Source: a virus (lineage: Duplodnaviria; Heunggongvirae; Uroviricota; Caudoviricetes). From it: 16,682 nt of DNA. Shown in pieces: positions 2,489 to 16,682 of this stretch. The number at the start of each line of letters is the position of its first letter. The stretch's first letter is position 1. The notes beneath the pieces are model-generated. The model made no database searches. It was not told the DNA's origin and worked only from the letters and a program-made list of their open reading frames with translations. Both the position numbers and the translations under genes were made by a program. The stretch lies in the IMG/VR virus record IMGVR_UViG_2695420653_000007, positions 1 through 16,682 of that record. The stretch is one strand, 5' to 3'.

Positions 2489-2516
2489 ATAAAAGAAAAC
2501 CCGCACTCGGCGGGTT
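2489..2516 (-). terminator. Intrinsic terminator B on minus strand (stem AACCCGC/GCGGGTT, loop of 5, then TTTTCTTTTAT), in tandem with terminator A
   Basis: Perfect 7-bp GC-rich inverted repeat followed on the minus strand by a T-rich tract. Confidence 0.5.
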
Positions 2517-2795
2517 CGCATTCGTTCAAATTGCGTTTACTTCTTGGCGTTCTGTTCATCCATATCGATATACCATGGGTTGCTTCCCTTGGGCATGTTT
2601 AACGACTGCTCGCGATAGTATCTGATGCGCTCCATGAAATACTCGCGTGAGTGCTCAGGTTGCTCTCATGATACCTGCTCAGTGATAACAGGTATGTTAA
2701 GGCGCTCTCTGTACTCCATGCCTGATGCTGCAAGGTCAACGTTTACCTTGTTCTGTTTTTCTTTCGATTTCTCGGCGATGTTATGCCTGACATTG

Positions 2796-3038: not shown

Positions 3039-3068
3039 TTTGTGTCCCCCCATTTTATGTACTGGGTA

Positions 3069-3077
3069 ATTATAACA
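3069..3077 (-). promoter_or_regulatory. Putative extended -10 promoter element (TGtTATAAT on minus strand) in AT-rich intergenic region 3039..3164
   Basis: Minus strand reads TGTTATAAT (plus attataaca at 3069..3077), a perfect TATAAT with upstream TG; -35 not convincing. Confidence 0.35.
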
Positions 3078-3164
3078 CATTGAAATATAGTAATATTTGA
3101 CGTAGATTTCTTTTGATCTATAAGCGATTTTTTAATGCTTTTAAGTTATAAATACTTGTTTTCA

Positions 3165-4091
3165 TCACCCATCTTGCTGCGGTGCTACTATTGAAAAGTG
3201 CTCACACCCTTTATCCCAAATAGTTTTGATAGTTGTCCAACTGACTGGAACCTTGATTTCGATTCTCCCGCTACAGTCACAAGTTTCGCAATCATCATCA
3301 CCAAAGCATTCCGGGCAGCTTATAAACGTAGTTTCTGAAAATTCACCGGATAGCACACCCTTAGCGCCGTTCTCGGCTGTTAGTCTCTTCGGCACCATGA
3401 CCCAACCATCCGGAATTACCGGAGAGTTGCCCGATAGTGCATTCTGCTCCAGTGATGCTTTTACAAACCACGCTGCCTGAACTATAACGCCATGAATCCA
3501 GCGCAAATCAGCATCGCGATCTTTCTTTTTCATCTTTTCGCCACTTAAGGCCTTGCTTATGTGGCTGCGTACCAGGTCTTCATGTAATTCCTTCGCCTCC
3601 TCAATGGTGAAACCACCAGGCAGAAGAGCCGGAGTTACCGGAGAGCTGGTTGACGCTTCCGGGATTTCCCGAAAATTATTGGTTGACGAATTCTTGCTTT
3701 CCCGAAAGTTTCCGGACTGAAGCATGGCGGTGCGGCAGGCGTTCCATATTTCGGCAGCAATATCGCGCTCGCTATCGGTTAATTTGTACGTGGAAACATA
3801 GCCAGAGAGCATTTCTACGTTTTCCGGAGTTGCTTCTTCCGGCACTACCGGCGCTGGCGGGGCGGCAAATAGATATCCGCCAAAGTCAGGAAGCTCTCCA
3901 ATGGCCTGTACGAACTTTTGTTTGCCTACGTCAACTCCTAATGGGTAATGAGCTATAATCTTTGCCACCGGCTCTGCTTCCAGCGATACCAGTGCAATCC
4001 GTGCCACTTCCATTTGTTCGCCACGAGTAAGTCCGTTATCAAGCGGATTTTTAATGAATAATTTGATACGTTCTTTGGTCATAGCGCTCAT
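3165..4091 (-). CDS. Hypothetical prophage early-region protein (308 aa) with C-terminal Cys cluster (CPECFGDDDCETCDCSG)
   Basis: Track ORF; start ATG lies 1 nt after the stop of the upstream Ea22-like gene. No confident family assignment. Confidence 0.65.
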   Translation of the reverse strand: MSAMTKERIKLFIKNPLDNGLTRGEQMEVARIALVSLEAEPVAKIIAHYPLGVDVGKQKFVQAIGELPDFGGYLFAAPPAPVVPEEATPENVEMLSGYVSTYKLTDSERDIAAEIWNACRTAMLQSGNFRESKNSSTNNFREIPEASTSSPVTPALLPGGFTIEEAKELHEDLVRSHISKALSGEKMKKKDRDADLRWIHGVIVQAAWFVKASLEQNALSGNSPVIPDGWVMVPKRLTAENGAKGVLSGEFSETTFISCPECFGDDDCETCDCSGRIEIKVPVSWTTIKTIWDKGCEHFSIVAPQQDG

Positions 4092-4092
4092 A

Positions 4093-4911
4093 TCACTCTC
4101 CTTTGATGCGAATGCCAGCGTCAGACATCATATGCAGATACTCAACTGCATCCTGAACCCATTGACCGCCAATCCCGTAATAGCGATGCGTAATGATGTC
4201 GATAGTTACTAACGGATCTTGTTCGATTAACTTCCGCAGAAACTCTTCCAGGTCACCAGTGCAGTGCTTGATGACAGGAGTTTTCCCAGGATGGCGAACA
4301 ACAAGAAACTGATTTCCGACTTCACGGACTTCGTTGCTTTCCAGTTCTGCAATGCGCTTCTCTGCGGCTTCCAGCTTCTCGCGCATATCGTCAACGTACT
4401 CGACCAGAGAACCGCCAGCAGGAATTTCGCACTCCTCGACCAGTTGGAAGTAGATATCAGCTGCGGCCCGTGTGTTGCTATGCCTAGCGTCGCCCATCTC
4501 ACCTTCACGAAGAGCATCGCGTTCGGCGGTAAGATTGGCTATTTTGCTGTCTTTGCCTTCCAGCTCAACGCGCAGCTTCCCTACCGTTAGCGCAATATCC
4601 TCGTTCTCCTGGTCGCGTGATTTGATGTATTGCTGGTTTCTTTCCCGTTCATCCAGTAATGCCAGCACGATAGCTGGATTGGCTGCGGCGATGAATTCAG
4701 CATTGGCCTGCTGTTCCATTTGGAAATCTTCATCGAAACCGCTTTCAGGATGCGCTCCTTCAATTCTGCAAATGGGAAGATATCCAACAACGTCACGATG
4801 AATTAGCGCATCATCACAATCAAATCGGCTCTCTCCATATTCGAGCGACCACACACCACACGTTGCTTTCTCTGCCTTTTCACGCAGTGCCTGATAGTCA
4901 ATTTTGCTCAC
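4093..4911 (-). CDS. ead/Ea22-like family protein (272 aa)
   Basis: N-terminus MSKIDYQALREKAEKAT... and central ...ANAEFIAAANPAIVLALLDE... match my recollection of lambda Ea22-like prophage proteins; followed by a coiled-coil-like region. Confidence 0.6.
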   Translation of the reverse strand: MSKIDYQALREKAEKATCGVWSLEYGESRFDCDDALIHRDVVGYLPICRIEGAHPESGFDEDFQMEQQANAEFIAAANPAIVLALLDERERNQQYIKSRDQENEDIALTVGKLRVELEGKDSKIANLTAERDALREGEMGDARHSNTRAAADIYFQLVEECEIPAGGSLVEYVDDMREKLEAAEKRIAELESNEVREVGNQFLVVRHPGKTPVIKHCTGDLEEFLRKLIEQDPLVTIDIITHRYYGIGGQWVQDAVEYLHMMSDAGIRIKGE

Positions 4912-5393
4912 TGGTTGCCCTCCTTCATAAAAATAATCCAGTGGGTCTTGTCACCCTTTCCTGTTCGTTGACCGATAACAGGCTTTCTGTCTGTCAGTGC
5001 CAATATTTGGCGAACAGGTATTTGCGTTTCATTCCATTTAAAAATCAGAACACCATATGGCCACAACACACGAAAGGCTTCTTTAAATCCCTGCCGCAAA
5101 TCATCACGCCAGGTATCTTTATTCAGCCGTCCATATTTCTTTCCCATCCAGGCGTTATCACCAACACGCTCAAGATGCGGAGGGTCGAATACAACAACCG
5201 GAAACGATGCGTCTGCAAATGGTAATGCACGAAAATCTGCTATCAGGTCAGGGCTAATTATCAGCCGTCGGCCATCACACAATATGTGATCTTCCTTTCT
5301 GATATCGCTAAATATCGCCCGGTCGTCCTTCTTATCGAACCAGAACATGCGACTGCCACAGCACATGTCGAGGATTGCTGCATGTCCAGTCAC
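4908..5393 (-). CDS. Small putative SAM-dependent methyltransferase (161 aa), GTG start overlapping upstream stop
   Basis: Motif I-like ILDMCCGSRMF near the N-terminus and motif IV-like VVFDPPH about 60 residues later, an arrangement seen in amino-methyltransferases (N6A/N4C DNA or RsmD-like). GTGA overlap with the upstream gene. Confidence 0.65.
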   Translation of the reverse strand: MTGHAAILDMCCGSRMFWFDKKDDRAIFSDIRKEDHILCDGRRLIISPDLIADFRALPFADASFPVVVFDPPHLERVGDNAWMGKKYGRLNKDTWRDDLRQGFKEAFRVLWPYGVLIFKWNETQIPVRQILALTDRKPVIGQRTGKGDKTHWIIFMKEGNQ

Positions 5394-6070
5394 TGGTTGC
5401 CTCCTTTGCGAAGCTGGGCGGCGAATCTCTCAGCATCAACAGCGCTTCCGCAATAGGCGGCGCGAGTCATGGAATCCAATTCGTTGCGGTTTTTTCTGAC
5501 GTATTCCTTCTGGCTTTCAGCAAACAACTCTACCCCCTGCGCCCGTACTTCAGCCAGGAATGCGTCGGTGGCTGGGGTTTCGATATTAGGCAGAAGCGCA
5601 TAATCGCAAATCGTATCGATCGCAGGATCACAACAGTCATCCTCGTTGCGTGGTCGTTCGCCAACCTTCGTTGACGATTGCATGATGATTCCCCAGCAAA
5701 TACTATCGACCTCTTCGCTCCATCCATCGCAAGCATCACCGCGATAGTCGTCGATTGCAGCCTCAGCCGATTCGATAGCTTCCTCAGCAGTTTTGTGCCA
5801 TTCAAAATTATGCTCAGAGCCATATGAGAAATATGAATGTCCCGCCTTCATCACCGCACTCTCCGCTGCCAGCGCCGCGCACTTGGCATCAATGTTATCA
5901 ATCGTGATTCCAGCAGAACGACACTCCCGCAACGCCGTTTCTAGTTTTGATTCAAGTTCACCGAACTTACGGACAAGATATTCAGCGTTTGTTTCGTTAA
6001 CCTTTAAATCTCGTGGGATGTATTTACCTTTCAGAAATCCATCCATCTCAATTAGTGACATTTGTTTCAT
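5390..6070 (-). CDS. Hypothetical acidic prophage protein (226 aa)
   Basis: Track ORF; translationally coupled at both ends (ATGA overlap with the 54-aa ORF upstream, GTGA with the methyltransferase downstream). Confidence 0.65.
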
Positions 6071-6231
6071 TTCTTCCCACTCCGCAACATCGCATTCAGA
6101 TATTTGTTTTGATTCACTGATGGAAAAGAATTTCTCTTAAGCAACTCCTCTCTCGATGGCATTGGCTTTACGCGTTGGCGAATAATCATTTCTGCCGGAA
6201 GAATGCCGGGATTGTATGCAAGTCCTCTCAT
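6067..6231 (-). CDS. Small hypothetical protein (54 aa, [54 protein letters not shown]), below the track size cutoff
   Basis: Found by manual translation; its ATG overlaps the stop of the upstream gene and its TGA overlaps the ATG of the downstream gene (ATGA at both ends), filling an otherwise empty 160-bp gap. Confidence 0.4.
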
Positions 6232-6518
6232 GATTTACTCTCCACGAACTGGTCAATAGCCATGCTAAGTGACATACCTAAAGCTTCGATATGCTGCTGA
6301 ATATCCTGTAGCGTCTGCGCCTGAGATAACAGGATTTCACGGTTGCATAACTCTTTAACCAGATGCTCAAACTTGCTGTAATAACCGATACGACTTAGTG
6401 TTTCTTTCCCTGCATTCTCGCCTTCTTTGATAATGCCTCTTTCACTAAGAATCATGTCGTGTTTGGTTCCGGTAATAACGTATTTTCCGAGGTCGATGTT
6501 TAGCTTCATTGTTTTCAT
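6228..6518 (-). CDS. Hypothetical prophage protein (96 aa, [14 protein letters not shown]...)
   Basis: Track ORF 6228..6668 trimmed to the ATG at 6518, which is preceded by GAGGAA and does not overlap the upstream gene ending at 6529. Confidence 0.6.
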
Positions 6519-6528
6519 TGTTAATTCC

Positions 6529-6822
6529 TCAGTCATTACTGATAGCGCCATAGCGTGAGCGGTAATTACGCAGGCGCGGGTCAATTTCAGGGAAGTGGGT
6601 ATATGTGGCTTTGCGGAATGGTCGGATTGATGTCTGGTAAATTCGCTCGCGTTCTTCTTTCTCTGCAAGCCATATACAGTGGCGAAATTCCTTTTCCTCT
6701 TTCGTTTCCTGCGGTAGCGACATTATCCGGTCGTAGTTTTTCCTGAATTTATCCAGCACCTCCGATACGGAATTGCCGGAACAGCGGCGCGCGTCGTCCG
6801 CACCATACAGAGGCGCTGGCAT
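6529..6822 (-). CDS. Hypothetical prophage protein (97 aa)
   Basis: Track ORF; AAGGA 7 nt upstream of ATG; located immediately downstream of ssb. Confidence 0.6.
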   Translation of the reverse strand: MPAPLYGADDARRCSGNSVSEVLDKFRKNYDRIMSLPQETKEEKEFRHCIWLAEKEERERIYQTSIRPFRKATYTHFPEIDPRLRNYRSRYGAISND

Positions 6823-6845
6823 AATTAAATCCTTATTTTTCTAAA

Positions 6846-7229
6846 TCAGAATGGGATGGAATCGTCGTATACAGGAGTGTTCTGCTGGTTACTACTTTGC
6901 TGCTGCGGGCCATTTCCTGAAGCTGCAAATCCAATCTTTGCATTCAGTAATTCAAGAGTGATTGATTGACCATTTTGCCCCTGATAAACATCAACCCTGA
7001 TATTTTCTCCGGTAATTTCCACAATGCCACCTTCAACAAGAACACTACGGTAGTAATCCGCTTGCGCCCCCGGCTTGGCAAATACAACGGCGCTGTAGTT
7101 TGTCCATTCTTTCTTTTTTGTCTGGCGATCGTAATACTGAACGCCAGCACGGATGTTGAATCCGATATTTTCCCCGGCCTGAAACTCTCTTGCGGGCTTG
7201 TTTAGTCTTACTGTAATCGAATGTGCCAT
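6846..7229 (-). CDS. ssb: Single-stranded DNA-binding protein (phage SSB, about 127 aa)
   Basis: C-terminal acidic tail ...PVYDDSIPF (E. coli SSB ends DDDIPF); Gly/Gln/Asn-rich linker before the tail; start ATG overlaps the erf stop (TAATG). Confidence 0.8.
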   Translation of the reverse strand: MAHSITVRLNKPAREFQAGENIGFNIRAGVQYYDRQTKKKEWTNYSAVVFAKPGAQADYYRSVLVEGGIVEITGENIRVDVYQGQNGQSITLELLNAKIGFAASGNGPQQQSSNQQNTPVYDDSIPF

Positions 7230-7834
7230 TAAGCAGTTGCCCCTTCTAATTCGCCTCGTCTGATGTTGTAAACGTCCTGCGCTTTGTGCTGCTCCGGCGT
7301 CCCTTCGAGCATCTTCCACGCTTTGGCGAACGCCTGTTTAAGCTCTTCTACGGTGTTTTTCTGCATTGCTGCGTCAGTGAATGCTTTTAGAACCTGTTCA
7401 GGTGTAGGTGATGGTTTTGATTGCTTTGCTGCTGCGTTCTGCTGATGTTTATGCTCGTCGGTATCTGCATCTTTCGCATCATCAATGCCGAACAAACCAT
7501 TGAGGCAATACTTGCGTGCATAAGAGCTTGTAGCCCCCGTAACTTGTGCAGAATCCATTCCTTTCTTGCTTTCTTCCTCTCGTGCTAGTGCGGTTGCCGT
7601 ATGACTGTTTTCGCCATCGGTAATAGTTGCCGTGGCTTTCACATAATACCGATCACCAATCAACACAACTTCATCGCTGATTGATAAAAACAGGCCATTC
7701 AGTAACGGCTTAACGCCTTCAAGAATGTCTTCGCAGCTTCTGTATTTATATTTACCGAATGAGTTGTACTGATTCTTTGGCGCGTTCAGATTCTCCTGAA
7801 TAGCTGCCAGTCTTGCGTAAAATTCTTTGCTCAT
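7229..7834 (-). CDS. erf: Erf-family single-strand annealing recombinase (201 aa)
   Basis: From MSKEFYARLAAIQENLNAPKNQYNSFGKYKYRSCEDILEGVKPLL... onward it matches, as I recall it, Salmonella phage P22 Erf almost residue for residue; track ORF trimmed to the ATG at 7834. Confidence 0.9.
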   Translation of the reverse strand: MSKEFYARLAAIQENLNAPKNQYNSFGKYKYRSCEDILEGVKPLLNGLFLSISDEVVLIGDRYYVKATATITDGENSHTATALAREEESKKGMDSAQVTGATSSYARKYCLNGLFGIDDAKDADTDEHKHQQNAAAKQSKPSPTPEQVLKAFTDAAMQKNTVEELKQAFAKAWKMLEGTPEQHKAQDVYNIRRGELEGATA

Positions 7835-7844
7835 ATGATTGTTC

Positions 7845-8015
7845 TCAGAATGGACATGGCCCAAGGAAATAACGCTGATTTAATACTTCGACTCGGGACA
7901 AATTAAGGCATACCCGCATTCCTTCGCGGTCGCCATTATGGCGATACCAGAGAGCTTTCTGCGTGTACATGCGTCTCTGTAACTTGCTCTCCTTCACTGT
8001 GGTTGCAAGTGACAT
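7845..8015 (-). CDS. Small protein (56 aa, MSLATTVKESKLQRRMYTQKALWYRHNGDREGMRVCLNLSRVEVLNQRYFLGPCPF) in the arf position just upstream of erf
   Basis: Manual translation; strong SD (AAGGAG, 6-nt spacer) before ATG; stop lies 10 nt before the erf ATG. Positionally equivalent to P22 arf but identity not confirmed. Confidence 0.45.
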   Translation of the reverse strand: MSLATTVKESKLQRRMYTQKALWYRHNGDREGMRVCLNLSRVEVLNQRYFLGPCPF

Positions 8016-8094
8016 GAATATCTCCTTCGTTACCGATTAATTCTTTCATCTGACGAATGAATTCTTCGTCTGACCAGTTATCTGTAAAACTCAT
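7936..8094 (-). CDS. Alternative small ORF (52 aa, MSFTDNWSDEEFIRQMKELIGNEGD...) translationally coupled to kil; overlaps the arf-position ORF in another frame
   Basis: ATG overlaps the kil stop (ATGA). Overlaps 7845..8015 by 80 nt; unclear which of the two (or both) is expressed. Confidence 0.3.
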   Translation of the reverse strand: MSFTDNWSDEEFIRQMKELIGNEGDIHVTCNHSEGEQVTETHVHAESSLVSP

Positions 8095-8243
8095 TTCCTG
8101 CGATACCATGGAAGGTTGATAGCTGATTTCATCGCTTTATTTGCTTCAAGCCACATTTTGGAATCACCAATAAATCTGGCTATTACTGCTTTGTTCTGTG
8201 CAGCACGAAGCATCTGGTGATTAATGGCTATTTCATTGCGCAT
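8091..8243 (-). CDS. kil: Kil-like host-killing/cell-division inhibitor peptide (50 aa)
   Basis: Manual translation MRNEIAINHQMLRAAQNKAVIARFIGDSKMWLEANKAMKSAINLPWYRRK; the IARFIGDSKMWLEA segment resembles lambda Kil (ATFIGDEKMFREA, from memory); sits directly after cIII as in lambda/P22; GAGG upstream. Confidence 0.55.
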   Translation of the reverse strand: MRNEIAINHQMLRAAQNKAVIARFIGDSKMWLEANKAMKSAINLPWYRRK

Positions 8244-8359
8244 AATAAGACCTCAACTCTTTTCCATCCGTCACGTAATTTACGGGTGATTCGTTCAAGT
8301 AAAGATTCATTTAGTTGGAAGGCACCCATGCGAGCGCCTACCGCGATTGCGTAAATCAT
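8228..8359 (-). CDS. cIII: CIII protein, FtsH inhibitor (43 aa)
   Basis: Manual translation MIYAIAVGARMGAFQLNESLLERITRKLRDGWKRVEVLLCAMK; the core ESLLERITRKLRDGWKR is identical to the lambda cIII central helix; AAGGA 7 nt upstream. Confidence 0.8.
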   Translation of the reverse strand: MIYAIAVGARMGAFQLNESLLERITRKLRDGWKRVEVLLCAMK

Positions 8360-8383
8360 GGGTGGTTCCTTATGTTGGTTTTA

Positions 8384-9352
8384 TTAGTAGGTTATTTTTG
8401 TTGCGAATACTTCGCCTTTTACGATGGCTGTTATGATATTTTTAGCAACATCTTCTGATGCGCCAACCTTGATAAGGTCAGCAAGTATTTTGTTATTTAC
8501 TTCTTTCCGGTGAGCTTTATCCTTTGCTCTACGCTCTTCTTCGTCCTTGATTCTTTTTTCTTCTGCTATTCTGGCTTGCTCTTTTGCTTCAGCATCGCGA
8601 CGGATTTGTTCAGCCTCCTCCTGTGCTTTTCGGCGTTCTGCTTCAATTGCCGCCTGCTTTTCTCTTTCAGCTCGTTCTGCTGCCTCTTTTGCTTCGCGCT
8701 GTGCTCGTTGCTCGGCTTCAATGCGTTCACGCTCTGCACGTTCCGCTGCGGCCTTAGCTTCTGCTTCTCGCCTTGCTGCTGCTTCAATTTCGGCTTTTGC
8801 CTTTGCTTCGGCTTCAGCTCTGGCTTTCGCTTCAGCTTCTCTTTTTAAGCGTTCTTCATGCTCTCGCTTTTCCTGCTCCGCTTTGAGTCTTGCCTCTTCT
8901 CTTTGGCGGTCAAATTCGCGATCCATCAAAATAGCTATTTCATGGTCAGACTCAATTTGCTTTGCGAGAGCTTCAGCTGCTGCCTTAGCTTCTTCTTCGG
9001 CTTTAATCCGCGCCTGTTCTTCCTCATAATCAGTAAGAGGCTGGCGCGCCTTGGCTTTCAGCTCATCAAGGCGATCACGCACTGTCTTGCGGTTAGCATC
9101 AATTAGCTTTGGAATTTCCTTCAGTTCAGCAACAAGGTCTTTGCCAAGACCATCGAGATATGTTTTCGTCTGCGAAACTTTATACGCCAGAGAAGCGATC
9201 TCCTTTCTGCCCTTTGCCGTTGTGATATCAGGCACAAAGGACATAACTTCACGTTCAACCTTTTGAAGGATTTCTTCAATCTGGTCGGCAGACTGAAATA
9301 CAGTCATTGCATTTGCTTTTTCAATAACAACTAAATCTGTTACTTCACTCAT
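8384..9352 (-). CDS. Hypothetical phage protein (322 aa) with long Ala/Glu/Lys/Arg-rich charged coiled-coil (TolA-like low complexity)
   Basis: Track ORF trimmed to ATG at 9352 (MSEVTDLVVIEK...) preceded by GGAGG; about 150 residues of EAKAKAEAEA-type repeats encoded by GCTTC/GCTGC-rich DNA. Confidence 0.7.
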   Translation of the reverse strand: MSEVTDLVVIEKANAMTVFQSADQIEEILQKVEREVMSFVPDITTAKGRKEIASLAYKVSQTKTYLDGLGKDLVAELKEIPKLIDANRKTVRDRLDELKAKARQPLTDYEEEQARIKAEEEAKAAAEALAKQIESDHEIAILMDREFDRQREEARLKAEQEKREHEERLKREAEAKARAEAEAKAKAEIEAAARREAEAKAAAERAERERIEAEQRAQREAKEAAERAEREKQAAIEAERRKAQEEAEQIRRDAEAKEQARIAEEKRIKDEEERRAKDKAHRKEVNNKILADLIKVGASEDVAKNIITAIVKGEVFATKITY

Positions 9353-9363
9353 ATATCCTCCAT

Positions 9364-9393
9364 AAAAAAAATTGCCCTCACATTGGAGGGCAA
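9364..9393 (-). terminator. Strong intrinsic terminator on minus strand (8-bp stem TTGCCCTC/GAGGGCAA, 6-nt loop, T8 run), tL-like
   Basis: Perfect 8-bp inverted repeat followed on the minus strand by eight T; the T-run abuts the RBS of the 322-aa gene. Confidence 0.65.
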
Positions 9394-9486
9394 AGAAGAT
9401 TTCCAATAATCAGAACAAGTCGGCTCCTGTTTAGTTACGAGCGACATTGCTCCGTGTATTCACTCGTTGGAATGAATACACAGTGC

Positions 9487-9675
9487 TTATTCGTCATGCA
9501 TTTCAGGTAATTCTTCGTATTCGACGCCCCATACGAGTTTACACCAAGTGACTCGCTCATATCTTTTACAAAAATCAGACCACATAACTTGTGTTCCATC
9601 ATGGTTTGTTATTACTTCTGTAATATCACCAACACTAACAAAACTGGTATTAGAAGCAGTTATTTTTACTTTCAT
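9487..9675 (-). CDS. Hypothetical small protein (62 aa), AT-rich accessory gene
   Basis: Track ORF; ATG overlaps the stop of the upstream 98-aa gene (TAATG); followed by a 9-bp-stem hairpin at 9454..9481. Confidence 0.5.
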   Translation of the reverse strand: MKVKITASNTSFVSVGDITEVITNHDGTQVMWSDFCKRYERVTWCKLVWGVEYEELPEMHDE

Positions 9676-9971
9676 TACTTATCCCCAAGAGCTTTTCTTA
9701 TTGCTGCGAGACCTTTATTAACAGCTCCATACCATTCTGGATATGTTGTCGTTGTTCTATTTTTGGTTTGCTTAAGTAATAACTGAAGTGCTTCGAGAAG
9801 GTCAGGTGCTGCCGCTATTAGATTGGCATCTTCAATGCATTGAACTTCCTCACAGATTGCAATATACGAACGCCAGCCTGCGCCATTTTCAAGTGAGTCT
9901 GCCTGGATGATTTTAATCTCATCCCCATCCATCATTATTTCCCACTTACCTTCAGTACCTTTAAATCCCAT
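9675..9971 (-). CDS. Hypothetical acidic protein (98 aa), AT-rich accessory gene
   Basis: Track ORF; AGAGG 7 nt upstream of ATG; coupled to the 62-aa ORF. Confidence 0.55.
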   Translation of the reverse strand: MGFKGTEGKWEIMMDGDEIKIIQADSLENGAGWRSYIAICEEVQCIEDANLIAAAPDLLEALQLLLKQTKNRTTTTYPEWYGAVNKGLAAIRKALGDK

Positions 9972-10023
9972 GTTAGCCTCTGTTGTTTATGCCAAAAATA
10001 AAGGACGGTTATGCGGCCTGAAA

Positions 10024-10446
10024 TTACTTAACCAATGATGCTGCATATTCAATTAGGAATAACTTAGGTGCAAGCCAAATCTTCAACCATTCGAAATTGA
10101 AGGCAATAATTAAAACACCCATAATTGAGCCAAATATAGGAACAAATACAGTGCATATATCGTAATAAACCGAAGATATAAAATGTCCATCATTTGGACG
10201 TCCATCGAAAGACGTCCATCTCTCGCCATTATTTCTTGCCGTTCTTGCAAAACTAGGAAGTTTAATTGCTGCAATTAAAAGCAACAATCCAGCCACTTGG
10301 AAAAGTGCGCTATGGACAAAACTCCATATTAGCAACTGATGAACAACATCAGGAATCTGTGCCTGGCTAAATGAAACAGCCGCATCTATTCCATTGCTGG
10401 CTTTTTGCAGTAGTTCTACGAGAATCTTGTTGGCTTGTTCTTCCAT
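10024..10446 (-). CDS. Hypothetical membrane protein (140 aa, about 2 TM segments) immediately downstream of N; SieB-position superinfection-exclusion candidate
   Basis: Track ORF; two long hydrophobic stretches; its SD (GAGGTG) overlaps the N stop codon; position matches sieB in lambda/P22 but no sequence identity established. Confidence 0.6.
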   Translation of the reverse strand: MEEQANKILVELLQKASNGIDAAVSFSQAQIPDVVHQLLIWSFVHSALFQVAGLLLLIAAIKLPSFARTARNNGERWTSFDGRPNDGHFISSVYYDICTVFVPIFGSIMGVLIIAFNFEWLKIWLAPKLFLIEYAASLVK

Positions 10447-10454
10447 ATATCACC

Positions 10455-10754
10455 TCAAATAAGTGGTTTGCTGCCTAATTTCATTTTCTGGCGACCAACA
10501 CAAGTCACCCCCATTTCACTGCGTGGCTTGCGGTAGTAAATATGATTCTGTTTACGCTCGACTTCTTCTGCCTTCTTGCAGCGAAGGCTTCCGAGTGATG
10601 CTGCTTTATCTGCTCTGACGCAACCAGAGAGCTTTAGCGCAATTTTTCGCGCCAGTCGCTGTTCTTGCATTGCCTGCTCACGTTGAGCCTGTCTGCGTGC
10701 TCTGCGGCGATTTCTGGCGTTATCGTCAGCCAGATATGTAATGACTACTGCCAT
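10455..10754 (-). CDS. N: Antitermination protein N (99 aa)
   Basis: Arginine-rich motif near N-terminus (NARNRRRARRQAQREQ); C-terminus YYRKPRSEMGVTCVGRQKMKLGSKPLI closely resembles lambda N C-terminus (WYSKPGERGITCSGRQKIKGKSIPLI, from memory); GGAGG 6 nt upstream; nutL in leader. Confidence 0.85.
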   Translation of the reverse strand: MAVVITYLADDNARNRRRARRQAQREQAMQEQRLARKIALKLSGCVRADKAASLGSLRCKKAEEVERKQNHIYYRKPRSEMGVTCVGRQKMKLGSKPLI

Positions 10755-10861
10755 GTTGACCTCCGATGATTGACTTTGGCGGTGACGCGCCGGGTGCTTA
10801 TCTTCCGGTTGCCGTCGTGCAGCTGCACTTCACGTCACCCCAAAGCCAACTACTCTTTGGT

Positions 10862-10902
10862 TCCCGCATTTCGGCGGGACAATCCCATCAATGTTAAAGA
10901 GC
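10862..10902 (-). promoter_or_regulatory. nutL: boxA (GCTCTTTAACAT, 10891..10902) and boxB hairpin (UCCCGC-CGAAAU-GCGGGA, 10862..10879) on the leftward transcript
   Basis: Same boxA core and identical 18-nt boxB as the site after cro (nutR); correct order boxA then boxB in the N leader. Confidence 0.6.
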
Positions 10903-10948
10903 CTGCCAATCTGTTCCGTTTGGCTTCCAGCGTCCTGCTGATGGCTAA

Positions 10949-11035
10949 AGAATACTGTAGGTATTTTATTGTGTAAATACCCAAGGTATTTATTTTTGGT
11001 GAAATAATGATAAGCAAATGAATACAAAGGATATT
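10949..11035 (-). promoter_or_regulatory. pL/OL region: operators AATACTGTAGGTATT (10951..10965), AATACCCAAGGTATT (10976..10990), AATACAAAGGATATT (11021..11035); putative pL -10 TATTCT and -35 TTTACA on minus strand
   Basis: Three 15-bp sites with inverted half-sites AATAC/GTATT, the same consensus as at OR; -10 overlaps OL1 and -35 overlaps OL2 with a 17-bp spacer, as at lambda pL. Confidence 0.55.
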
Positions 11036-11121
11036 TATTTTTTCGGTGTCTGCTTGTTCAGTGCTTTTTATGCGGGATATGTGAAGTGGATCCCGATAGC
11101 TATTGCTGCCGGGATTATGGG

Positions 11122-11490
11122 TTAGTCAGCGAAGGTTAAGACGAGAATTACCTTAATGATGTCTGCTACAACAGACACGGCCATAGATAAACCAAAGACA
11201 ATCCAAGCCATAGAGATGTCTTCACTACCATCGTATAGAGTTCCGTAATCACTGGTGTAAGGCGTAAATGTCGCGCCTTGATACAATAGGTATAAGCTTG
11301 ATCCATAGAGGATAAATGCAGATATCCCTTGTATTGCTATGATCACCAGAATCATGAAACGAGCTGATCTATGCGCCCAAGCCTGGCTTATTTTTTCTGA
11401 TAGAGATTTCGCAATAAAAGCATGCGCTAAGCCGTAAATTGTCGAGATTGCCAACATCCCAAAAAAGCTTGCTATAGCGGTTCCAACCAT
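11122..11490 (-). CDS. Small integral membrane protein (about 122 aa, 3 predicted TM helices) co-transcribed with cI; rex-position accessory gene
   Basis: Track ORF 11122..11511 trimmed to ATG at 11490 (AAGGGG 7 nt upstream), which lies 18 nt downstream of the cI stop; three long hydrophobic segments; no family recognised. Confidence 0.65.
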   Translation of the reverse strand: MVGTAIASFFGMLAISTIYGLAHAFIAKSLSEKISQAWAHRSARFMILVIIAIQGISAFILYGSSLYLLYQGATFTPYTSDYGTLYDGSEDISMAWIVFGLSMAVSVVADIIKVILVLTFAD

Positions 11491-11507
11491 AAGCGCCCCT
11501 TGCGTGA

Positions 11508-12224
11508 TCAAACCAGCCTTAGTTTTGTCTCAATTGCAACGCCTATAATCTTGCAGTTTCCATTGATTGGCACGAGAGGCCATGCAGGGTTAAGTCCCTT
11601 GAGGTATTTATTTCCGCCGTCGATTATCAGCTTCTTGAATGTTGCTTCGTTAGAGTCAGAAAGTTTTGCTATGACCAAGCTGCCGTTGATCGCCTCCCTT
11701 CCGGTATCGAAAAGAACGAATGTTCCCTCTGGAATGCTTAACCCAACCGGTGCCGTCATTGAATCACCTTCCACTTTAAGCCAAAACGCATTACCTTGAA
11801 TATGCGCGTCAGACTCAAGCCAAACATCTATGTCTTTAATGGTGTATGGTTCGCATGCTTCACACCACGAGCCAGCCTGGATACTGCTTAACACCGGATA
11901 CCTCTTTCCTGCTCTGTATTCCCCTGCATACCTTACGTTGGCATCGCTCTTAAGGCTTTCTGCCTGTTCTGCAACCTTGGCAGCAATTGACTGGCTAAAA
12001 TCAGCAATTGAGACTTGCAACAGTCGTGCAAAACCAGATGCAACCTCAACGTTTAGCGCGTTTCTGCCATTAAGATAATGCCCTACCGCTCCTTGGGTGA
12101 TACCAAGTTCATCAGCAATTGAGTATTGGGTTATTCCCAACTCTTTCTTTTTTGACTCATACAAAGCCTTAAGCCGCTTAGCGTCTTCGAGCTGTTCTGT
12201 CGTCAGTGATTTCTTATTTTCCAT
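11508..12224 (-). CDS. cI: CI repressor (238 aa; N-terminal HTH, C-terminal LexA-like S24 autopeptidase domain)
   Basis: N-terminus LTTEQLEDAKRLKALYESKKKELGITQ parallels lambda cI ([27 protein letters not shown]); C-terminal FWLKVEGDSMTAP and FKKL motifs (catalytic Ser/Lys); no SD before ATG, consistent with a leaderless pRM transcript. Confidence 0.9.
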   Translation of the reverse strand: MENKKSLTTEQLEDAKRLKALYESKKKELGITQYSIADELGITQGAVGHYLNGRNALNVEVASGFARLLQVSIADFSQSIAAKVAEQAESLKSDANVRYAGEYRAGKRYPVLSSIQAGSWCEACEPYTIKDIDVWLESDAHIQGNAFWLKVEGDSMTAPVGLSIPEGTFVLFDTGREAINGSLVIAKLSDSNEATFKKLIIDGGNKYLKGLNPAWPLVPINGNCKIIGVAIETKLRLV

Positions 12225-12230
12225 AGCTTA

Positions 12231-12301
12231 ATTCTAATAGCTAAGGTACTTAAACTAAAAATACCCTGAGTATTGATTGCTTTGAATACCTGTAGTATTC
12301 T
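12231..12301. promoter_or_regulatory. OR/pRM/pR genetic switch: OR3 AATAGCTAAGGTACT (12236..12250), OR2 AATACCCTGAGTATT (12260..12274), OR1 AATACCTGTAGTATT (12285..12299); pR -35 TTGATT (12273..12278) and -10 TATTCT (12296..12301); pRM -10 TAGAAT on minus (12231..12236)
   Basis: Three evenly spaced (24-25 bp) 15-bp sites sharing the AATACnnnnnGTATT consensus with OL; promoter hexamers overlap the operators as in lambda; pRM -10 is 6 nt from the cI ATG. Confidence 0.6.
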
Positions 12302-12330
12302 TTGTTCATGGTTAATAACGGAGTGTGCAT

Positions 12331-12525
12331 ATGATTCGAATGACACTTGCCGATTACGCCAAAATCCATGGACAGGCTAAAGCAGCCAGTGACTTTGGTG
12401 TAATCCAGTGCGCTATCAGCAAGGCCATTCTGGCAGGCCGTAACATTATGGTTACGGTAAAGCCTGATGGCAGTGTGATTGGAGAGGAAGTTCGTCCTTT
12501 CCCAAGCAACAAGAAAAACAAATAG
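12331..12525 (+). CDS. cro: Cro repressor (64 aa)
   Basis: [64 protein letters not shown] parallels lambda Cro (...[57 protein letters not shown]); GGAG 7 nt before ATG at 12331. Confidence 0.85.
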
Positions 12526-12531
12526 TAACAC

Positions 12532-12577
12532 CGCTCTTTAACAGTCATGGTCCTCATTCCCGCCGAAATGCGGGAAT
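12532..12577 (+). promoter_or_regulatory. nutR: boxA CGCTCTTTAACA (12532..12543) and boxB hairpin AUUCCCGC-CGAAAU-GCGGGAAU (12556..12577)
   Basis: Begins 7 nt after the cro stop; boxA close to the CGCTCTTA consensus; boxB identical to that in nutL. Confidence 0.6.
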
Positions 12578-12582
12578 ACAAC

Positions 12583-12617
12583 GCGCATCAGTTGGTGCGC
12601 ATAACTTCTTATTTGTT
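12583..12617 (+). terminator. tR1-like hairpin (GCGCAUC-AGUU-GGUGCGC) followed by U-rich tract, between nutR and cII
   Basis: 7-bp stem (one G-U pair) and AUAACUUCUUAUUUGUU downstream; position matches lambda tR1. Confidence 0.35.
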
Positions 12618-12633
12618 AAGGAAATACTTACAT

Positions 12634-12912
12634 ATGCAACTTACAAGTACTCGCAAGAAAGCGAATGCAATTACAAGCAACATCCTAAATCGAATTGCTG
12701 TACGTGGTCAGCGAAAGGTTGCTGATGCATTAGGGATCAATGAATCGCAAATTTCGCGATGGAAAGACAGCTTCATCCCAAAAATGGGAATGCTTCTGGC
12801 TGTTCTTGAATGGGGTGTTGAAGACGAGGAGTTGGCGGAACTGGCTAAGAAAGTAGCCAGAATGCTGACAAAAGAAAAAGCCCCGAAGAACGGCGAATTC
12901 TTCGAGGCCTGA
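12634..12912 (+). CDS. cII: CII transcriptional activator (92 aa)
   Basis: ...GINESQISRWKDSFIPKMGMLLAVLEWGVEDEELAELAKKVARMLT matches lambda cII (...GVDKSQISRWKRDWIPKFSMLLAVLEWGVVDDDMARLARQVAAILT); ATG at 12634 preceded by AAGGAAA; track ORF starts further upstream but that region contains nutR. Confidence 0.85.
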   Translation: MQLTSTRKKANAITSNILNRIAVRGQRKVADALGINESQISRWKDSFIPKMGMLLAVLEWGVEDEELAELAKKVARMLTKEKAPKNGEFFEA

Positions 12913-12946
12913 TGTAGAAAGACTGGATCAATCCACAGGAGTAATT

Positions 12947-13591
12947 ATGACATACGAAAATGACAAATTCCAGGTTCTGAAGAGCATGAAGGTGCCAGAT
13001 GATTTTAAATCAAATGGCTTTGTTTATGTGCTTTCGAATGAGTGCATGCCGGGAATTTATAAGATTGGGATGACTAAGCATTCACCAGAAGTTAGGGCTA
13101 AAGAAATTTCAGCCTCTACTGGCGTTCCTAAGCCATTTAAGGTGATAGCAGCCTTTCATTCAAATAATCCCGCATCAGATGAAAAACTTATTCATAAAGC
13201 CTTTGCAAAAGAGAGGCTTAGTGATAATCGAGAGTTTTTCAAGCTTGAAGATAATGATCTTTATGAATCTCTAAATGAAATAAGGGCGCTGGTTGGCCCT
13301 GAAAGAAATGGCGAGACGGCAGAATACGCAATTTACGACTCATTCATTTCTTTTCGCCATGAAAATGAGCTTGATCTTAATGAGGAGCTTATAGAGCAAG
13401 GTCTGGGTAGTGTAGTTGGTCATCTTCCTGCGATGAAAAATTTCCTTATTCGCGCCGGAATTGATTACGCGAAGCAACTGATAAGCAAATATAACTCATC
13501 GATAGTTATTAATACAGATGGCAGTGTGGTGATGGTTAAGTCTCTTGAAGCCCAATGCTTTGATGCGGAGGTTGGAAATGAGCCTTGCTGA
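12947..13591 (+). CDS. T5orf172 (GIY-YIG-like, MUG113-type) domain protein (214 aa), AT-rich insertion between cII and O
   Basis: N-terminal region GFVYVLSNECMPGIYKIGMTKHSPEVRAKEI ... EKLIHKAFAKERLSDNREFFKLE fits the remembered T5orf172 signature (G-VY-V, KIG-T, R--E, H--F, REFF); AGGAG 7 nt upstream; visibly more AT-rich than cII and O. Confidence 0.65.
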   Translation: MTYENDKFQVLKSMKVPDDFKSNGFVYVLSNECMPGIYKIGMTKHSPEVRAKEISASTGVPKPFKVIAAFHSNNPASDEKLIHKAFAKERLSDNREFFKLEDNDLYESLNEIRALVGPERNGETAEYAIYDSFISFRHENELDLNEELIEQGLGSVVGHLPAMKNFLIRAGIDYAKQLISKYNSSIVINTDGSVVMVKSLEAQCFDAEVGNEPC

Positions 13592-14420
13592 AGTATTTTA
13601 CCTGCCGAAGAGTGAACCTGTTGAACAGGAGCGAAGAGTGGCTGATATCGATGATGGTTACACCAGATTCGCTAACGAGCTGCTGGAAGCTATCGCAAGT
13701 GCCGATTTAACCGCTCGCCAGTTGAAAGTTATGCTGGCCTACGTCCGGAAAACATATGGATTCAATAAGAAAACAGATCGAATAGCCGATGAGCAAATTG
13801 CTCAGTTAACAGGACTGTCAAGGCAGAATGTTAACAAGGCTAAAAAAGAACTGATTTCAATGAATTGCCTGTTTATGGATGGAAATCAAATCGGTGTAAA
13901 CAGTGAGGTATCTGCGTGGCAATTCAGCAAGTGTCTCCAAGTTAGCAACTTTGTCTCGAAGTTAGAGACAAAAAATGTCTCCAAATTAGAGACACTCAAT
14001 GTCTCGAAGTTAGAGACACACAAAAGACATTCTTTAAAGACAAAAGAAAATATTAATAAACCCCCTATATCCCCCAAAAAAGTTTCTCAGAAGTTCGACC
14101 CGCTAGAAACAGAGTTGCCTGATTGGTTATCAGCAGAAACATGGTTGTCGTGGGTTACCTATCGCAAGGAGATAGGCAAGTCGATCAAGTCTAAGCAAAG
14201 TGTCACTCAGGCTATCAACGTTCTAAGCAGAAGTCTGGAGAAGGGATATACACCTGAAGAAATTATAAACCAGAGCATCGCCAGTGGTTGGCAGGGGATT
14301 TTTGAGCCCAAGACTCCAAAGGGGAAACCTCAACCGAGGCCGCAGCATCGAGCTATGCAGGAAAACTTTGCCACCAAAGATTACGGACAAACTGAAATGC
14401 CTTCATGGGCGCAGGAGTGA
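13578..14420 (+). CDS. O: Replication initiator O (Phage_rep_O N-terminal domain; contains ori iterons)
   Basis: ERRVADIDDGYTRFANELLEAIASADLTARQLKVMLAYVRKTYGFNKKTDRIAD parallels lambda O (ERNVADLDDGYARLSNMLLEAYSGADLTKRQFKVLLAILRKTYGWNKPMDRITD); GGAGG 7 nt before ATG at 13578; iterons inside coding sequence. Confidence 0.85.
   Translation: MSLAEVFYLPKSEPVEQERRVADIDDGYTRFANELLEAIASADLTARQLKVMLAYVRKTYGFNKKTDRIADEQIAQLTGLSRQNVNKAKKELISMNCLFMDGNQIGVNSEVSAWQFSKCLQVSNFVSKLETKNVSKLETLNVSKLETHKRHSLKTKENINKPPISPKKVSQKFDPLETELPDWLSAETWLSWVTYRKEIGKSIKSKQSVTQAINVLSRSLEKGYTPEEIINQSIASGWQGIFEPKTPKGKPQPRPQHRAMQENFATKDYGQTEMPSWAQE
13932..14060. repeat. Origin of replication: four 19-bp palindromic iterons (TGTCTCnnnnnnnGAGACA type) at about 13932, 13952, 13977 and 14000, followed by AT-rich tract
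   Basis: TGTCTCGAAGTTAGAGACA occurs twice exactly (13952..13970, 14000..14018), with variants TGTCTCCAAATTAGAGACA and TGTCTCCAAGTTAGCAAC; they encode the repetitive SKLET peptide in O; A/T-rich 14019..14060. Confidence 0.7.
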
Positions 14421-14422
14421 AC

Positions 14423-15268
14423 ATGACGCTGGATGAAAAGATCTCCCAACTGGAGAAAAAACTTGCAGAATTGAGTTCTCCGCCAATTGCTATCGAGCAT
14501 ACATCTGTAGAAATTGGCACTGGCATCTGTGAAAAACATGGTGAGTTTGAGCAGCGTAACCGTTACTCGACTGGGCCAATTAAGTTTGCCTCAAGACCTA
14601 GCGAATGCCCGGAATGCATGAGAGATGAGCTTATTCGGCTACAGGCAGAGAAGATTAAAATCGACGAGGAATCACGTAAGCGCAATGTCGAGTTTCTGTT
14701 GAATAATCTTGATATTCCTGAACGATTCAAGGGTTGCACACTACAGAACTACGAGCCAGTCAACGACGATGCAAAGAGAGTGCTCAGGGTGTGTCAGGCA
14801 TACGCCAGCAAATGGCCTGAGAGGTTACAGAAAGGCGGTGGGCTGGTTATGTGTGGAAAGCCTGGTACTGGAAAGAATCATCTTGCACTGGCTATCGCCC
14901 GGCACGCAATTACGGAACATCAAAGCTCAGCTATTTTCACAACGGCGCTGAAAATTGCCAGAGAATATAAATCAACATGGTCTAAAAACTCCACCCGCAC
15001 AGAGGATGAAGTGATCCGACAGTTCACTAAACCTGACCTGCTAATTATCGATGAGGTTGGTGTGCAGTTTGGAAGCGAGGCGGAAAAGATGATCATGTTC
15101 GAAATCATCAACACCCGCTACGAGTGCATGAAGCCAACGATCCTGATTAGCAACCAGAGCAAAGATGAACTGTCTGCATTCATTGGTGAGCGTGTTATTG
15201 ACAGGATGAATGATGGCGGCGGGTGCACTCTTGCGTTTACATGGGATAGTTACAGGAGCAGATCGTGA
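14423..15268 (+). CDS. DnaC-like helicase loader (IstB/DnaC AAA+ ATPase) with N-terminal Cys-rich zinc-ribbon-like motif
   Basis: Walker A GKPGTGKNHLALAIA and Walker B LLIIDEVG; CxxH...CPEC near the N-terminus; AGGAG 7 nt before ATG at 14423, just after the O stop. Confidence 0.85.
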   Translation: MTLDEKISQLEKKLAELSSPPIAIEHTSVEIGTGICEKHGEFEQRNRYSTGPIKFASRPSECPECMRDELIRLQAEKIKIDEESRKRNVEFLLNNLDIPERFKGCTLQNYEPVNDDAKRVLRVCQAYASKWPERLQKGGGLVMCGKPGTGKNHLALAIARHAITEHQSSAIFTTALKIAREYKSTWSKNSTRTEDEVIRQFTKPDLLIIDEVGVQFGSEAEKMIMFEIINTRYECMKPTILISNQSKDELSAFIGERVIDRMNDGGGCTLAFTWDSYRSRS

Positions 15269-15555
15269 CTGGAAAAGAAATCATCCTGGAATATCTGAAA
15301 ACTCATGAACAATTCTCCCCACATGAATTAGCACTGATCACCGGAATACCAAATAACAGAATCGCTCAAGCAGCAAGGCATATGGTGAAACAAGGACATT
15401 TGAGTGTTGTTGAGCGTAAGTGGAAGACGGTTATTTATGCAAAACGCAAAGTGAAGAAGGAGCCAATTAAAAGAAATCCAGATGGTACGGGGTGGGGATG
15501 TGCAAATCCAATGACGGCGTTTATTAATAGGGCGCTTATGGAGGTAAGGCAATGA
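15265..15555 (+). CDS. Hypothetical nin-region protein (96 aa), possible winged-helix DNA-binding protein; GTG start
   Basis: Track ORF; GTG overlaps the stop of the DnaC-like gene (GTGA); AGGAG upstream. Confidence 0.55.
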   Translation: MTGKEIILEYLKTHEQFSPHELALITGIPNNRIAQAARHMVKQGHLSVVERKWKTVIYAKRKVKKEPIKRNPDGTGWGCANPMTAFINRALMEVRQ

Positions 15556-15635
15556 CCATCTACATCACTGAGCTAATAACAGGCCTGCTGGTAATCGCAG
15601 GCCTTTTTATTTGGGGGAGAGTAAATCGTGGCTGA
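15552..15635 (+). CDS. Tiny hydrophobic peptide (27 aa, MTIYITELITGLLVIAGLFIWGRVNRG), possible small membrane protein
   Basis: Manual translation; ATG overlaps the stop of the upstream gene (ATGA); single hydrophobic helix. Below track cutoff; speculative. Confidence 0.3.
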   Translation: MTIYITELITGLLVIAGLFIWGRVNRG

Positions 15636-15834
15636 GTTTATGCTCGTCGCATTCAAATGCGTTGGCGTTGGATGGATTCTTCTGACGTTTTTTATTGTTC
15701 TGCATAGCTACATTCGTCTTGTGAATGACGGTAAAGACCCATGGTATACGTTGTTTGGCGCTGCATTTGTCTGGGTGATTATCGGTGTTATGCCTGTTGT
15801 CGTAGCAAAAATGGCGTGGCGTTTTGTGAGTTGA
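15628..15834 (+). CDS. Small membrane protein (68 aa, 2 TM), GTG start
   Basis: Track ORF; GGGGGAGAG upstream of GTG; two hydrophobic helices. Confidence 0.5.
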   Translation: MAEFMLVAFKCVGVGWILLTFFIVLHSYIRLVNDGKDPWYTLFGAAFVWVIIGVMPVVVAKMAWRFVS

Positions 15835-15851
15835 ACTGAGGGTAAGTATCG

Positions 15852-16181
15852 ATGGACGAATCAAGAAAGCAGTTTGAAGAATGGTTTGAAAACAAATATC
15901 ACGTTTCAAGTGACGTGATGAAGATTATGCACATCAAGGTCGAGATTGCATGGGAGGCATGGCAGGCATCGCGAGCAGCTATTGAACTGGATATCGACTG
16001 GCCCGAATCGAATGACGACTTTTGGAAAGATGGTGAAGAAGGTGCTTATGCGATGGGTTATGAGGATGGGAGAGACAAAACGGTAATTGCAGTAATGAAA
16101 GCTATCAGATCCGCTGGAATTAAAGAGAAGAATTTCGATGAAGCAAATATACATGCTTCGCAACGAAGCAATCAGAAATAA
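15852..16181 (+). CDS. Hypothetical nin-region protein (109 aa)
   Basis: Track ORF; GAGGGTAAG upstream of ATG. Confidence 0.6.
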   Translation: MDESRKQFEEWFENKYHVSSDVMKIMHIKVEIAWEAWQASRAAIELDIDWPESNDDFWKDGEEGAYAMGYEDGRDKTVIAVMKAIRSAGIKEKNFDEANIHASQRSNQK

Positions 16182-16584
16182 CGCCATAGACGCAATACTC
16201 TCACTTCCCATCGACGACAAGTCACCCCACGAAGTCCACCTTAAAGAACCCAAACGCAGCAAAGCGCAGAATGACCGTATGTGGCCGATGCTGAACGATG
16301 TTTCGCGTCAGGTGCTATGGCATGGTCAACGGCTGGCACCGGAAGACTGGAAAGACCTGTTCACTGCCCTGTGGCTTAAGACCAAAAAACTGGAGCAACG
16401 AAGTGTTCCTGGTATCGACGGTGGCGTTGTCATGCTTGGCGTGCGTACCAGCAAAATGCGAAAGGCCAGCATGACTGAGCTTATCGAAATCATGTTCTGG
16501 TTCGGCTCAGAGCGCAACGTGCGGTGGAGTGATGACTCCCGGCGAGAGTATGAATGGTCACAACGAAAAGGGAAGGCTGCATGA
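16138..16584 (+). CDS. ninB: NinB (Orf-family recombination mediator)
   Basis: QNDRMWPMLNDVSRQVLWHGQRLAPEDWKDLF parallels lambda NinB (QNRKLWACLGDVSRQVEWHGRWLDAESWKCVF); start could alternatively be the ATG 15 nt downstream. Confidence 0.85.
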   Translation: MKQIYMLRNEAIRNNAIDAILSLPIDDKSPHEVHLKEPKRSKAQNDRMWPMLNDVSRQVLWHGQRLAPEDWKDLFTALWLKTKKLEQRSVPGIDGGVVMLGVRTSKMRKASMTELIEIMFWFGSERNVRWSDDSRREYEWSQRKGKAA

Positions 16585-16682
16585 CTATCAAATCAAATAC
16601 GCCAGCACACGACAAGGACTGCTGGCAAACGCCGCTTTGGCTTTTTGATGCACTGGATATTGAGTTTGGATTCTGGCTGGAT
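16581..16682 (+). CDS. Phage Dam-family DNA N6-adenine methyltransferase, 5' fragment (continues beyond window)
   Basis: N-terminus MTIKSNTPAHDKDCWQTPLWLFDALDIEFGFWLD matches the remembered start of phage Dam-family enzymes (W-x-TP-x-LF ... F-x-LD); ATG overlaps the ninB stop. Confidence 0.65.
   Translation, partial: MTIKSNTPAHDKDCWQTPLWLFDALDIEFGFWLD

Follow-up and report, generated by a model that had tools for sequence, protein, structure and literature searches.

A lambda-like immunity region of the HK620 type in a lambdoid prophage

The immunity region of phage lambda combines CI and Cro proteins of characteristic families, a tripartite right operator (OR) of 17-bp sites with odd symmetry, a left operator (OL) over the promoter pL that drives N, and CI motifs for RecA-stimulated cleavage, and its pRM mRNA is the classic leaderless message. 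A second described system, that of phage HK620 (GenBank AF335538 / NC_002730; Clark et al. 2001, J Mol Biol 311:657), has been in GenBank since 2001, and record AF335538 annotates pL, OL1-3, tIMM, hkaS, cI, OR1-3, pR, cro, nutL and nutR. Here we analyse a 16,682-bp stretch of tailed-phage DNA (IMG/VR record IMGVR_UViG_2695420653_000007, positions 1 to 16,682; hereafter the window), in which a preliminary description, made from the letters alone, had recognized a lambda-like bistable switch at 10949-12301 with 15-bp operators, a leaderless cI and a distinct immunity specificity. The protein families, the tripartite OR of 17-bp sites with odd symmetry, the OL over pL and the cleavage motifs are all shared by this locus. 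We conclude that the interval is very probably (a probability of roughly 0.9) the immunity region of a lambdoid prophage, of the imm-HK620 type and with a lambda-like way of working. The conclusion draws on what can be read directly: the operator sites, their statistics and geometry, the families of the encoded proteins, the identity with HK620 and the conservation of the arrangement in diverged relatives.

Identity with the HK620 immunity region

Over about 2.4 kb, the region is 98.5% identical to that of HK620, with OL1, OL2, OR1-3, pL, pR, nutL and nutR identical base for base, Cro 100% identical and CI identical at 237 of 238 residues (Table 1). The operators and the DNA-binding domains of CI and Cro are those of imm-HK620, the sole CI difference lying outside helices 2-3, at residue 66 (window 12027-12029), which is Ala (GCA) here and Thr (ACA) in HK620. 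A temperature-sensitive allele of lambda cI, A66T, affects the same residue through the same codon change, GCA to ACA (PMC3010116). We take Ala66 to be the wild-type residue because the CI of the window recurs without change in 63 of the 80 IMG/VR loci kept, 62 of which belong to the near-identical window lineage. The sequenced HK620 was presumably a temperature-sensitive clear-plaque mutant, with Thr66 probably its mutation.

The layout is that of a lambdoid switch. The divergent cI and cro genes flank a multipartite operator that overlaps pR and pRM, with three sites in the 106-bp intergenic region lying over the -35 and -10 elements of pR and the -10 element of pRM. On the minus strand, cI is followed by a small gene (11122-11490), and a non-coding stretch lies on either side; a second operator cluster, OL, covers pL upstream of a gene for an N-type antiterminator, whose product matches PHROG 271 at 5e-36. 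The interval as first described stops short of the cro start (12331).

Several points weigh against this assignment. Record AF335538 calls its features putative; the literature searched, without the original HK620 description, yielded no experimental study of the HK620 switch, and the reachable literature contained no binding, footprinting, transcription-start or immunity experiment on this exact element. pR matches the promoter consensus at only 8 of 12 positions, below the threshold of our scan, and the -35 element of pRM (TTTAGT) is poor, though this is expected for an activated promoter. OR2 lies one bp further from the cI start than it does in lambda, and the third OL site discussed below is not at a lambda-like spacing and conflicts with the HK620 annotation.

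The preliminary description had proposed a novel specificity unless the operators proved to match a known immunity group exactly. They match those of HK620 AF335538 exactly, and the claim of novelty therefore falls, leaving the annotation in place. The switch is an ordinary one that was already known and is common in Escherichia coli: 146 of 5,426 complete E. coli genomes (about 2.7%) carry the region with no less than 95% identity, it is 98-99% identical in HK620, HK630, HK140, mEpX2, HZ41, HF4s, vB_EcoP-611R6 and several Stx phages (some of them Stx2c), and 585 stretches in IMG/VR encode a relative. Phage mEpX2, which is 98.9% identical to the window in the immunity region, is reported to constitute an immunity group distinct from those of lambda, HK022, phi80 and other mEp phages; triple lysogens were made of it together with lambda and HK022 (PMC3442831). 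A protein search for the diverged (76% identical) CI type among named phages brought up nothing nearer than HK620.

Table 1. Features of the immunity region and its flanks in the window. Operators are given without strand.
Feature	Coordinates	Strand	Sequence or composition	Position or role	Basis
nutL	10862-10903	-		N-utilisation site of the pL operon	identical to HK620 nutL feature
pL	10949-10977	-	-35 TTTACA (10977-10972), 17-nt spacer, -10 TATTCT (10954-10949)	drives N	consensus scan; within identical HK620 pL
OL1	10950-10966		GAATACTGTAGGTATTT; core 10951-10965, perfect	over pL spacer and -10	same as HK620 OL1
OL2	10975-10991		AAATACCCAAGGTATTT; core 10976-10990, perfect	over pL -35	same as HK620 OL2
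Probable weak third OL operator	11020-11036		GAATACAAAGGATATTT; core 11021-11035, one mismatch	45 bp beyond OL2	
hkaS-like gene	11122-11490	-	122 aa, three hydrophobic segments		98.6% identical to HK620 hkaS; PHROG 6534 'unknown function'
cI	11508-12224	-	238 aa, lambda-type helix-turn-helix (HTH) and S24 peptidase		PDB, Pfam, HK620 identity
Putative pRM -10	12231-12236	-	TAGAAT	6 nt upstream of cI ATG	
OR3	12235-12251		TAATAGCTAAGGTACTT; core 12236-12250 (AATAGCTAAGGTACT), two mismatches	centre -19 from cI start; over pRM	same as HK620 OR3
OR2	12259-12275		AAATACCCTGAGTATTG; core 12260-12274, perfect	centre -43; over pR -35	same as HK620 OR2
pR	12273-12301	+	-35 TTGATT (12273-12278), 17-nt spacer, -10 TATTCT (12296-12301)	drives cro	read from sequence; within identical HK620 pR
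OR1	12284-12300		GAATACCTGTAGTATTC; core 12285-12299, perfect	over pR spacer and -10	same as HK620 OR1
cro	12331-12525	+	64 aa, lambda Cro family		Pfam PF09048, PDB lambda Cro, HK620 identity
nutR	12532-12577	+			identical to HK620 nutR feature

Operators and the third site at OL

A search of the window for the pattern AATACNNNNNGTATT (AATAC-N5-GTATT) with at most one mismatch returned five sites, four perfect and one with a single mismatch, against 0.45 expected from 200 shuffles, none of which reached five. All five fall within the two non-coding control regions flanking cI. A sixth site, OR3, adjoins the cI start, and a position weight matrix (PWM) built from the four perfect sites places all six among the eight best 17-mers of the window. 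Because of these site statistics and this ranking, we consider the operator pattern to be real and not a product of chance. The six sites of one consensus that had been described are present, with the reservation that OR3 departs from the consensus at two positions, and the 15-bp cores are found as well, but a 17-bp site centred on one base pair, as in lambda, describes the operators better. Within the half-site, a pyrimidine stands at position 7 and position 1 shows no conservation.

The arrangement of the three OR sites is lambda-like, as had been claimed, with centres at -19, -43 and -68 from the A of the cI ATG (lambda, -19, -42 and -66), and OL2 lies 25 bp centre-to-centre from OL1. The statement that the sites sit over -10 and -35 elements as in lambda holds for OL1, OL2 and OR1-3 but fails for the third OL site, which overlaps no promoter. 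Among 63-64 near-identical copies of the region, polymorphic positions make up 2 of 60 in the half-sites, 51 of 268 in other non-coding sequence (Fisher p = 9e-4) and 9 of 30 in the central 5 bp, a count that is supportive rather than decisive because the copies are not independent. The OL1 half-sites are nearly invariant in 63 copies, and OL2 varies among copies in its central bases only.

Conservation over greater distances was assessed in 17 diverged lineages from about ten genera of Enterobacterales, whose CI proteins are 63-87% identical; they comprise IMG/VR contigs and prophages of Lelliottia, Scandinavium, Kluyvera, Pectobacterium, Pantoea, Lonsdalea, Serratia, Phytobacter and Tatumella. 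AATAC-N5-GTATT sites occur at about -67 and -43 in 17 of 17 lineages. The site at the OR3 position (about -19) is the weakest of the three where it was detected, with one or two mismatches, and two lineages (L071 and L076) have no site there within two mismatches. Central bases, spacers and much of the remaining protein sequence differ among the lineages. Position 7, which lies outside the search pattern, is a pyrimidine in 93% of the lineage half-sites.

At the third OL site we depart from the HK620 record, in which the palindrome at 11010-11040 is annotated as the terminator tIMM and OL3 occupies the equivalent of 10997-11013. We judge it rather likely that the palindrome at 11021-11035 is a real weak operator, and give slightly better than even chances to its being the third OL operator of imm-HK620, 45 bp (about 4.3 helical turns) beyond OL2, a distance that differs from the 20 bp between OL2 and OL3 in lambda. 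A competing reading, in which OL has only two operators and the palindrome either forms the terminator stem of the cI operon or reflects chance or a boundary, is possible but doubtful. The HK620 annotation and the distance of 45 bp both speak for it, as do the lack of a good site at -45 in the L068-type, Lelliottia, Pantoea and Pectobacterium relatives and the conservation there of an A-rich motif (AAAAATAAATA) even where the palindrome is degenerate. Set against these points, the proposed tIMM hairpin is AT-rich, is not followed by a U-run on the cI-sense strand and was not reported by a terminator scan; folded on both strands, it was no more stable than shuffles (z = -0.64), and we rejected it as a convincing intrinsic terminator. 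Apart from the palindrome, only four sites in the entire window come within one mismatch of the pattern, the half-sites of the palindrome are invariant in 63 copies, and perfect sites occur at exactly -45 in Kluyvera (L088) and Phytobacter (L095) prophages, both of which lack hkaS. Sites with two mismatches are found at -45 in L065, L066 and the Serratia lineage L094, and Pantoea prophages have their third OL site at 21 bp instead.

The OL3 of the HK620 record (TGGTGAAATAATGATAA in the window) was rejected as an operator, being unlike the consensus and not among the 25 best PWM scores; this position has no counterpart in the window lineage, and L068-type relatives have a lone AATAC half-site at that spacing. 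The evidence thus favours the third OL site of the preliminary description over the annotated one. If it is functional, contact between OL3 and OR3 in a long-range CI loop would have a geometry unlike lambda's, and the relatives would form a natural series in which to examine how the distance between operators limits looping and the autorepression of pRM.

Bordering the distal OL site on its outer side (about 11036-11046, cI-sense) is an A-rich motif, AAAAATAAAT(A), which has equivalents in L065, L066 and L088-L095. It is present in nearly all lineages, even those with a degenerate palindrome and unrelated upstream sequence, and may mark a module boundary, bind a protein or bend the DNA.

Repressor, Cro and the start of cI

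The repressor has the domain structure of lambda CI, an HTH N-terminal domain (Pfam HTH_3, 8e-10) joined to a LexA-like S24 autopeptidase C-terminal domain (Peptidase_S24, 5e-24). It matches full-length lambda repressor (PDB 3bdn) at E = 2.9e-52 and is 43% identical to lambda CI, in keeping with the lambda-like N-terminal framework noted at the outset, and it retains the autocleavage motifs: the Ala-Gly site in QAG (116-118), the Ser of GDSM (153-156) and the Lys of FKKL (196-199). Cro is a member of the lambda Cro family (PF09048, E = 3.6e-26, 91.3 bits against a cut-off of 32.7), matches lambda Cro in PDB at E = 4.7e-19 and is 63% identical to it; its start codon is preceded by GGAG.

The segment of the cI open reading frame (ORF) quoted as carrying a distinct recognition helix, QYSIADELGITQGAVGHYLNG, is present, and both helix and operators do differ from those of lambda. 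Helix 3 reads QGAVGHYLNG here and QSGVGALFNG in lambda CI, with 5 of 10 residues different, and the Cro helix is QCAISKAI here and QSAINKAI in lambda. The half-site rAATACy shares A2, A5 and C6 with the lambda half-site TATCACCGC and differs from it at positions 1, 3, 4 and 8, so that the locus has neither the imm-lambda operators, TATCACCGC(N)GCGGTGATA, nor the lambda CI helix. In the diverged lineages, the CI helix [TS]QGAV[GA]HYLNG is kept in 17 of 17, and the Cro helix Q[CT]AISKA in all but Tatumella, from which no Cro was recovered.

The published 'evolutionary code' of Cro pairs Gln at H1 with A at +2, Ala at H3 with A at +5, and Lys at H6 with G at -6 (PMC6649833). The code predicts A2, A5 and C6 for the Cro of the window, and the half-site AATAC, in 17-bp numbering, has exactly these. 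In lambda repressor, Gln44 reads A2, Asn55 and Lys4 read the C6:G pair, and Ser45 reads position 4. The window CI presumably keeps the lambda residues for the shared bases (Gln44, Asn55 and Lys4) and has Gly in place of Ser45, a replacement that we set beside the difference between the two operators at position 4.

As the preliminary description had stated, the cI ATG has no Shine-Dalgarno sequence and lies 6 nt from a TAGAAT -10 hexamer. Both can be read directly: the cI-sense sequence upstream of the ATG, ...CTATTAGAATTAAGCTATG, consists of TAGAAT, 6 nt and ATG, and no Shine-Dalgarno-like motif (GGAG, AGGA or GAGG) was found in the 20 nt before the start codon. The segment is nearly identical to that of lambda pRM (TAGATT-TAACGT-ATG in lambda, TAGAAT-TAAGCT-ATG here) and has the sequence layout expected of a leaderless cI, with a -10 element about 6-7 nt before a start codon that lacks a Shine-Dalgarno sequence. 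The position of TAGAAT implies a leaderless pRM transcript that would start at the A at 12224. Among the relatives, a TA[GCA][AT]AT hexamer stands 5-7 nt before an ATG without a Shine-Dalgarno sequence in 17 of 17 lineages, which supports the leaderless arrangement.

It is very unlikely that TAGAAT is fortuitous and that cI is translated instead from longer transcripts, made from pRE or another upstream promoter, by way of a non-canonical initiation signal. The poor -35 element of pRM and the failure of the promoter scan to call pRM would fit such a scheme. However, the N-terminus of the window CI aligns residue for residue with that of lambda CI, the segment between -10 and ATG is almost that of lambda, and the hexamer is fused to the OR3 half-site in every one of the diverged lineages despite differences in the intervening bases.

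That the specificity is not distinct at all, with the window CI cross-reacting with another named immunity group such as that of Salmonella phage epsilon34, is most improbable: the epsilon34 record (L136, EU570103 32760-32831) does have OR1 ATACGATGTGTAT and OR2 ATACAATTTGTAT, with the core ATAC-N5-GTAT common to the window operators, and a repressor helix, TKGAVSHWLNG, that resembles TQGAVGHYLNG of the window, but one or two mismatches affect the outer AA/TT positions of its sites, its helix carries Lys in place of the Gln of the window CI (which in lambda reads position 2), and the rest of its repressor N-terminal domain and its Cro belong to different families. The putative epsilon34 operators (WTACRAWWTGTAT; PMC2629481) share the core and differ from the window operators in the outer positions; the epsilon34 Cro is of an all-alpha HTH type, whereas that of the window has the lambda fold, and the epsilon34 record annotates two OR sites only. 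The helix of the epsilon34 Cro, TRGAVCHYETG, also resembles TQGAVGHYLNG in spite of the unrelated fold. The resemblance to epsilon34 hints at a reusable pairing of helix and half-site across repressor lineages.

Candidate relatives at 54% identity in the genome scan were excluded, being lambda itself. Low-coverage contigs (L097-L114, L116 and L117) from about 20 unrelated species assemblies, including Enterococcus, Shewanella, Capnocytophaga, Bradyrhizobium and Citrobacter youngae, carry a gene for a protein with 53-55% identity to the query, and the only such locus translated (L112) encodes lambda CI with Thr66 (cI857). These proteins appear to be lambda CI, which points to commercial lambda DNA contaminating public assemblies.

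Homology and comparative conservation suggest how the switch would operate with respect to CI and Cro binding, activation, transcription start and bistability. CI dimers would bind the 17-bp sites through the half-site (r)AATAC(y), and occupancy of OR1 and OR2 and of OL1 and OL2 would shut off pR and pL. From OR2, centred at -43, CI would activate the weak pRM, whose transcript would begin at the A of the cI ATG and probably run on into the membrane-protein gene hkaS. Cro, with its lambda fold and helix QCAISKAI, would bind the same sites as CI. The degenerate OR3 over pRM could allow either negative autoregulation or repression by Cro, and OR3, perhaps together with the distal OL site, may mediate CI autorepression. 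Because CI keeps the Ala-Gly site and the Ser/Lys dyad, RecA-stimulated autocleavage is expected to induce the prophage.

Neighbouring genes and significance

In the position directly downstream of cI that rexAB occupies in lambda, the window has the small hkaS-like membrane-protein gene. Its product had no Pfam or PADLOC match. The gene travels with this immunity region in E. coli, but in the Kluyvera, Phytobacter and Pantoea relatives the space between cI and OL is too small for a gene. Within hkaS lie two palindromes 41 bp apart (11280-11294, GATACAATAGGTATA, and 11321-11335, GATATCCCTTGTATT), each with two mismatches to the operator core; since about seven two-mismatch hits are expected by chance in the whole window, they may mean nothing. 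A stable hairpin, AUCCCGGCAGCAAUAGCUAUCGGGAU, lies just past the hkaS stop codon (about 11090-11115, minus strand; the 96-nt fold has z = -2.6). No U-run comes after it, and it is not a canonical intrinsic terminator.

Outside the immunity region, the window is a lambdoid early region of mosaic make-up, with genes for an Erf-type annealing protein, N, cII, an O-like initiator and a DnaC-type loader. At most 39% of the window is covered by any one phage record, and the surroundings differ from those in HK620 by their Erf recombination module, by an additional ORF that separates cII from O, and by the DnaC-type loader. This ORF (12947-13591, plus strand; 214 aa) precedes the O-like replication gene at a point where HK620 carries nothing but the 48-aa hkaW; roughly the first 100 residues of its product match the PADLOC candidate defence families PDC-S57 (4e-29) and PD-Lambda-1 (1e-11), and it may be a defence moron. 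An Rfam search of the whole window found no RNA families.

The practical value of these results lies mostly in correct annotation. The immunity type of the prophage is imm-HK620, which predicts the phages that a lysogen would exclude and an SOS-inducible prophage. Beyond the database record, there are two modest gains: the probable OL3 is re-assigned, and the specificity is seen across many genera of Enterobacterales. The co-conservation of recognition helices and half-sites across these genera offers a clean comparative set for lambda-type protein-DNA recognition, and the same set should likewise be useful for studying leaderless cI expression.

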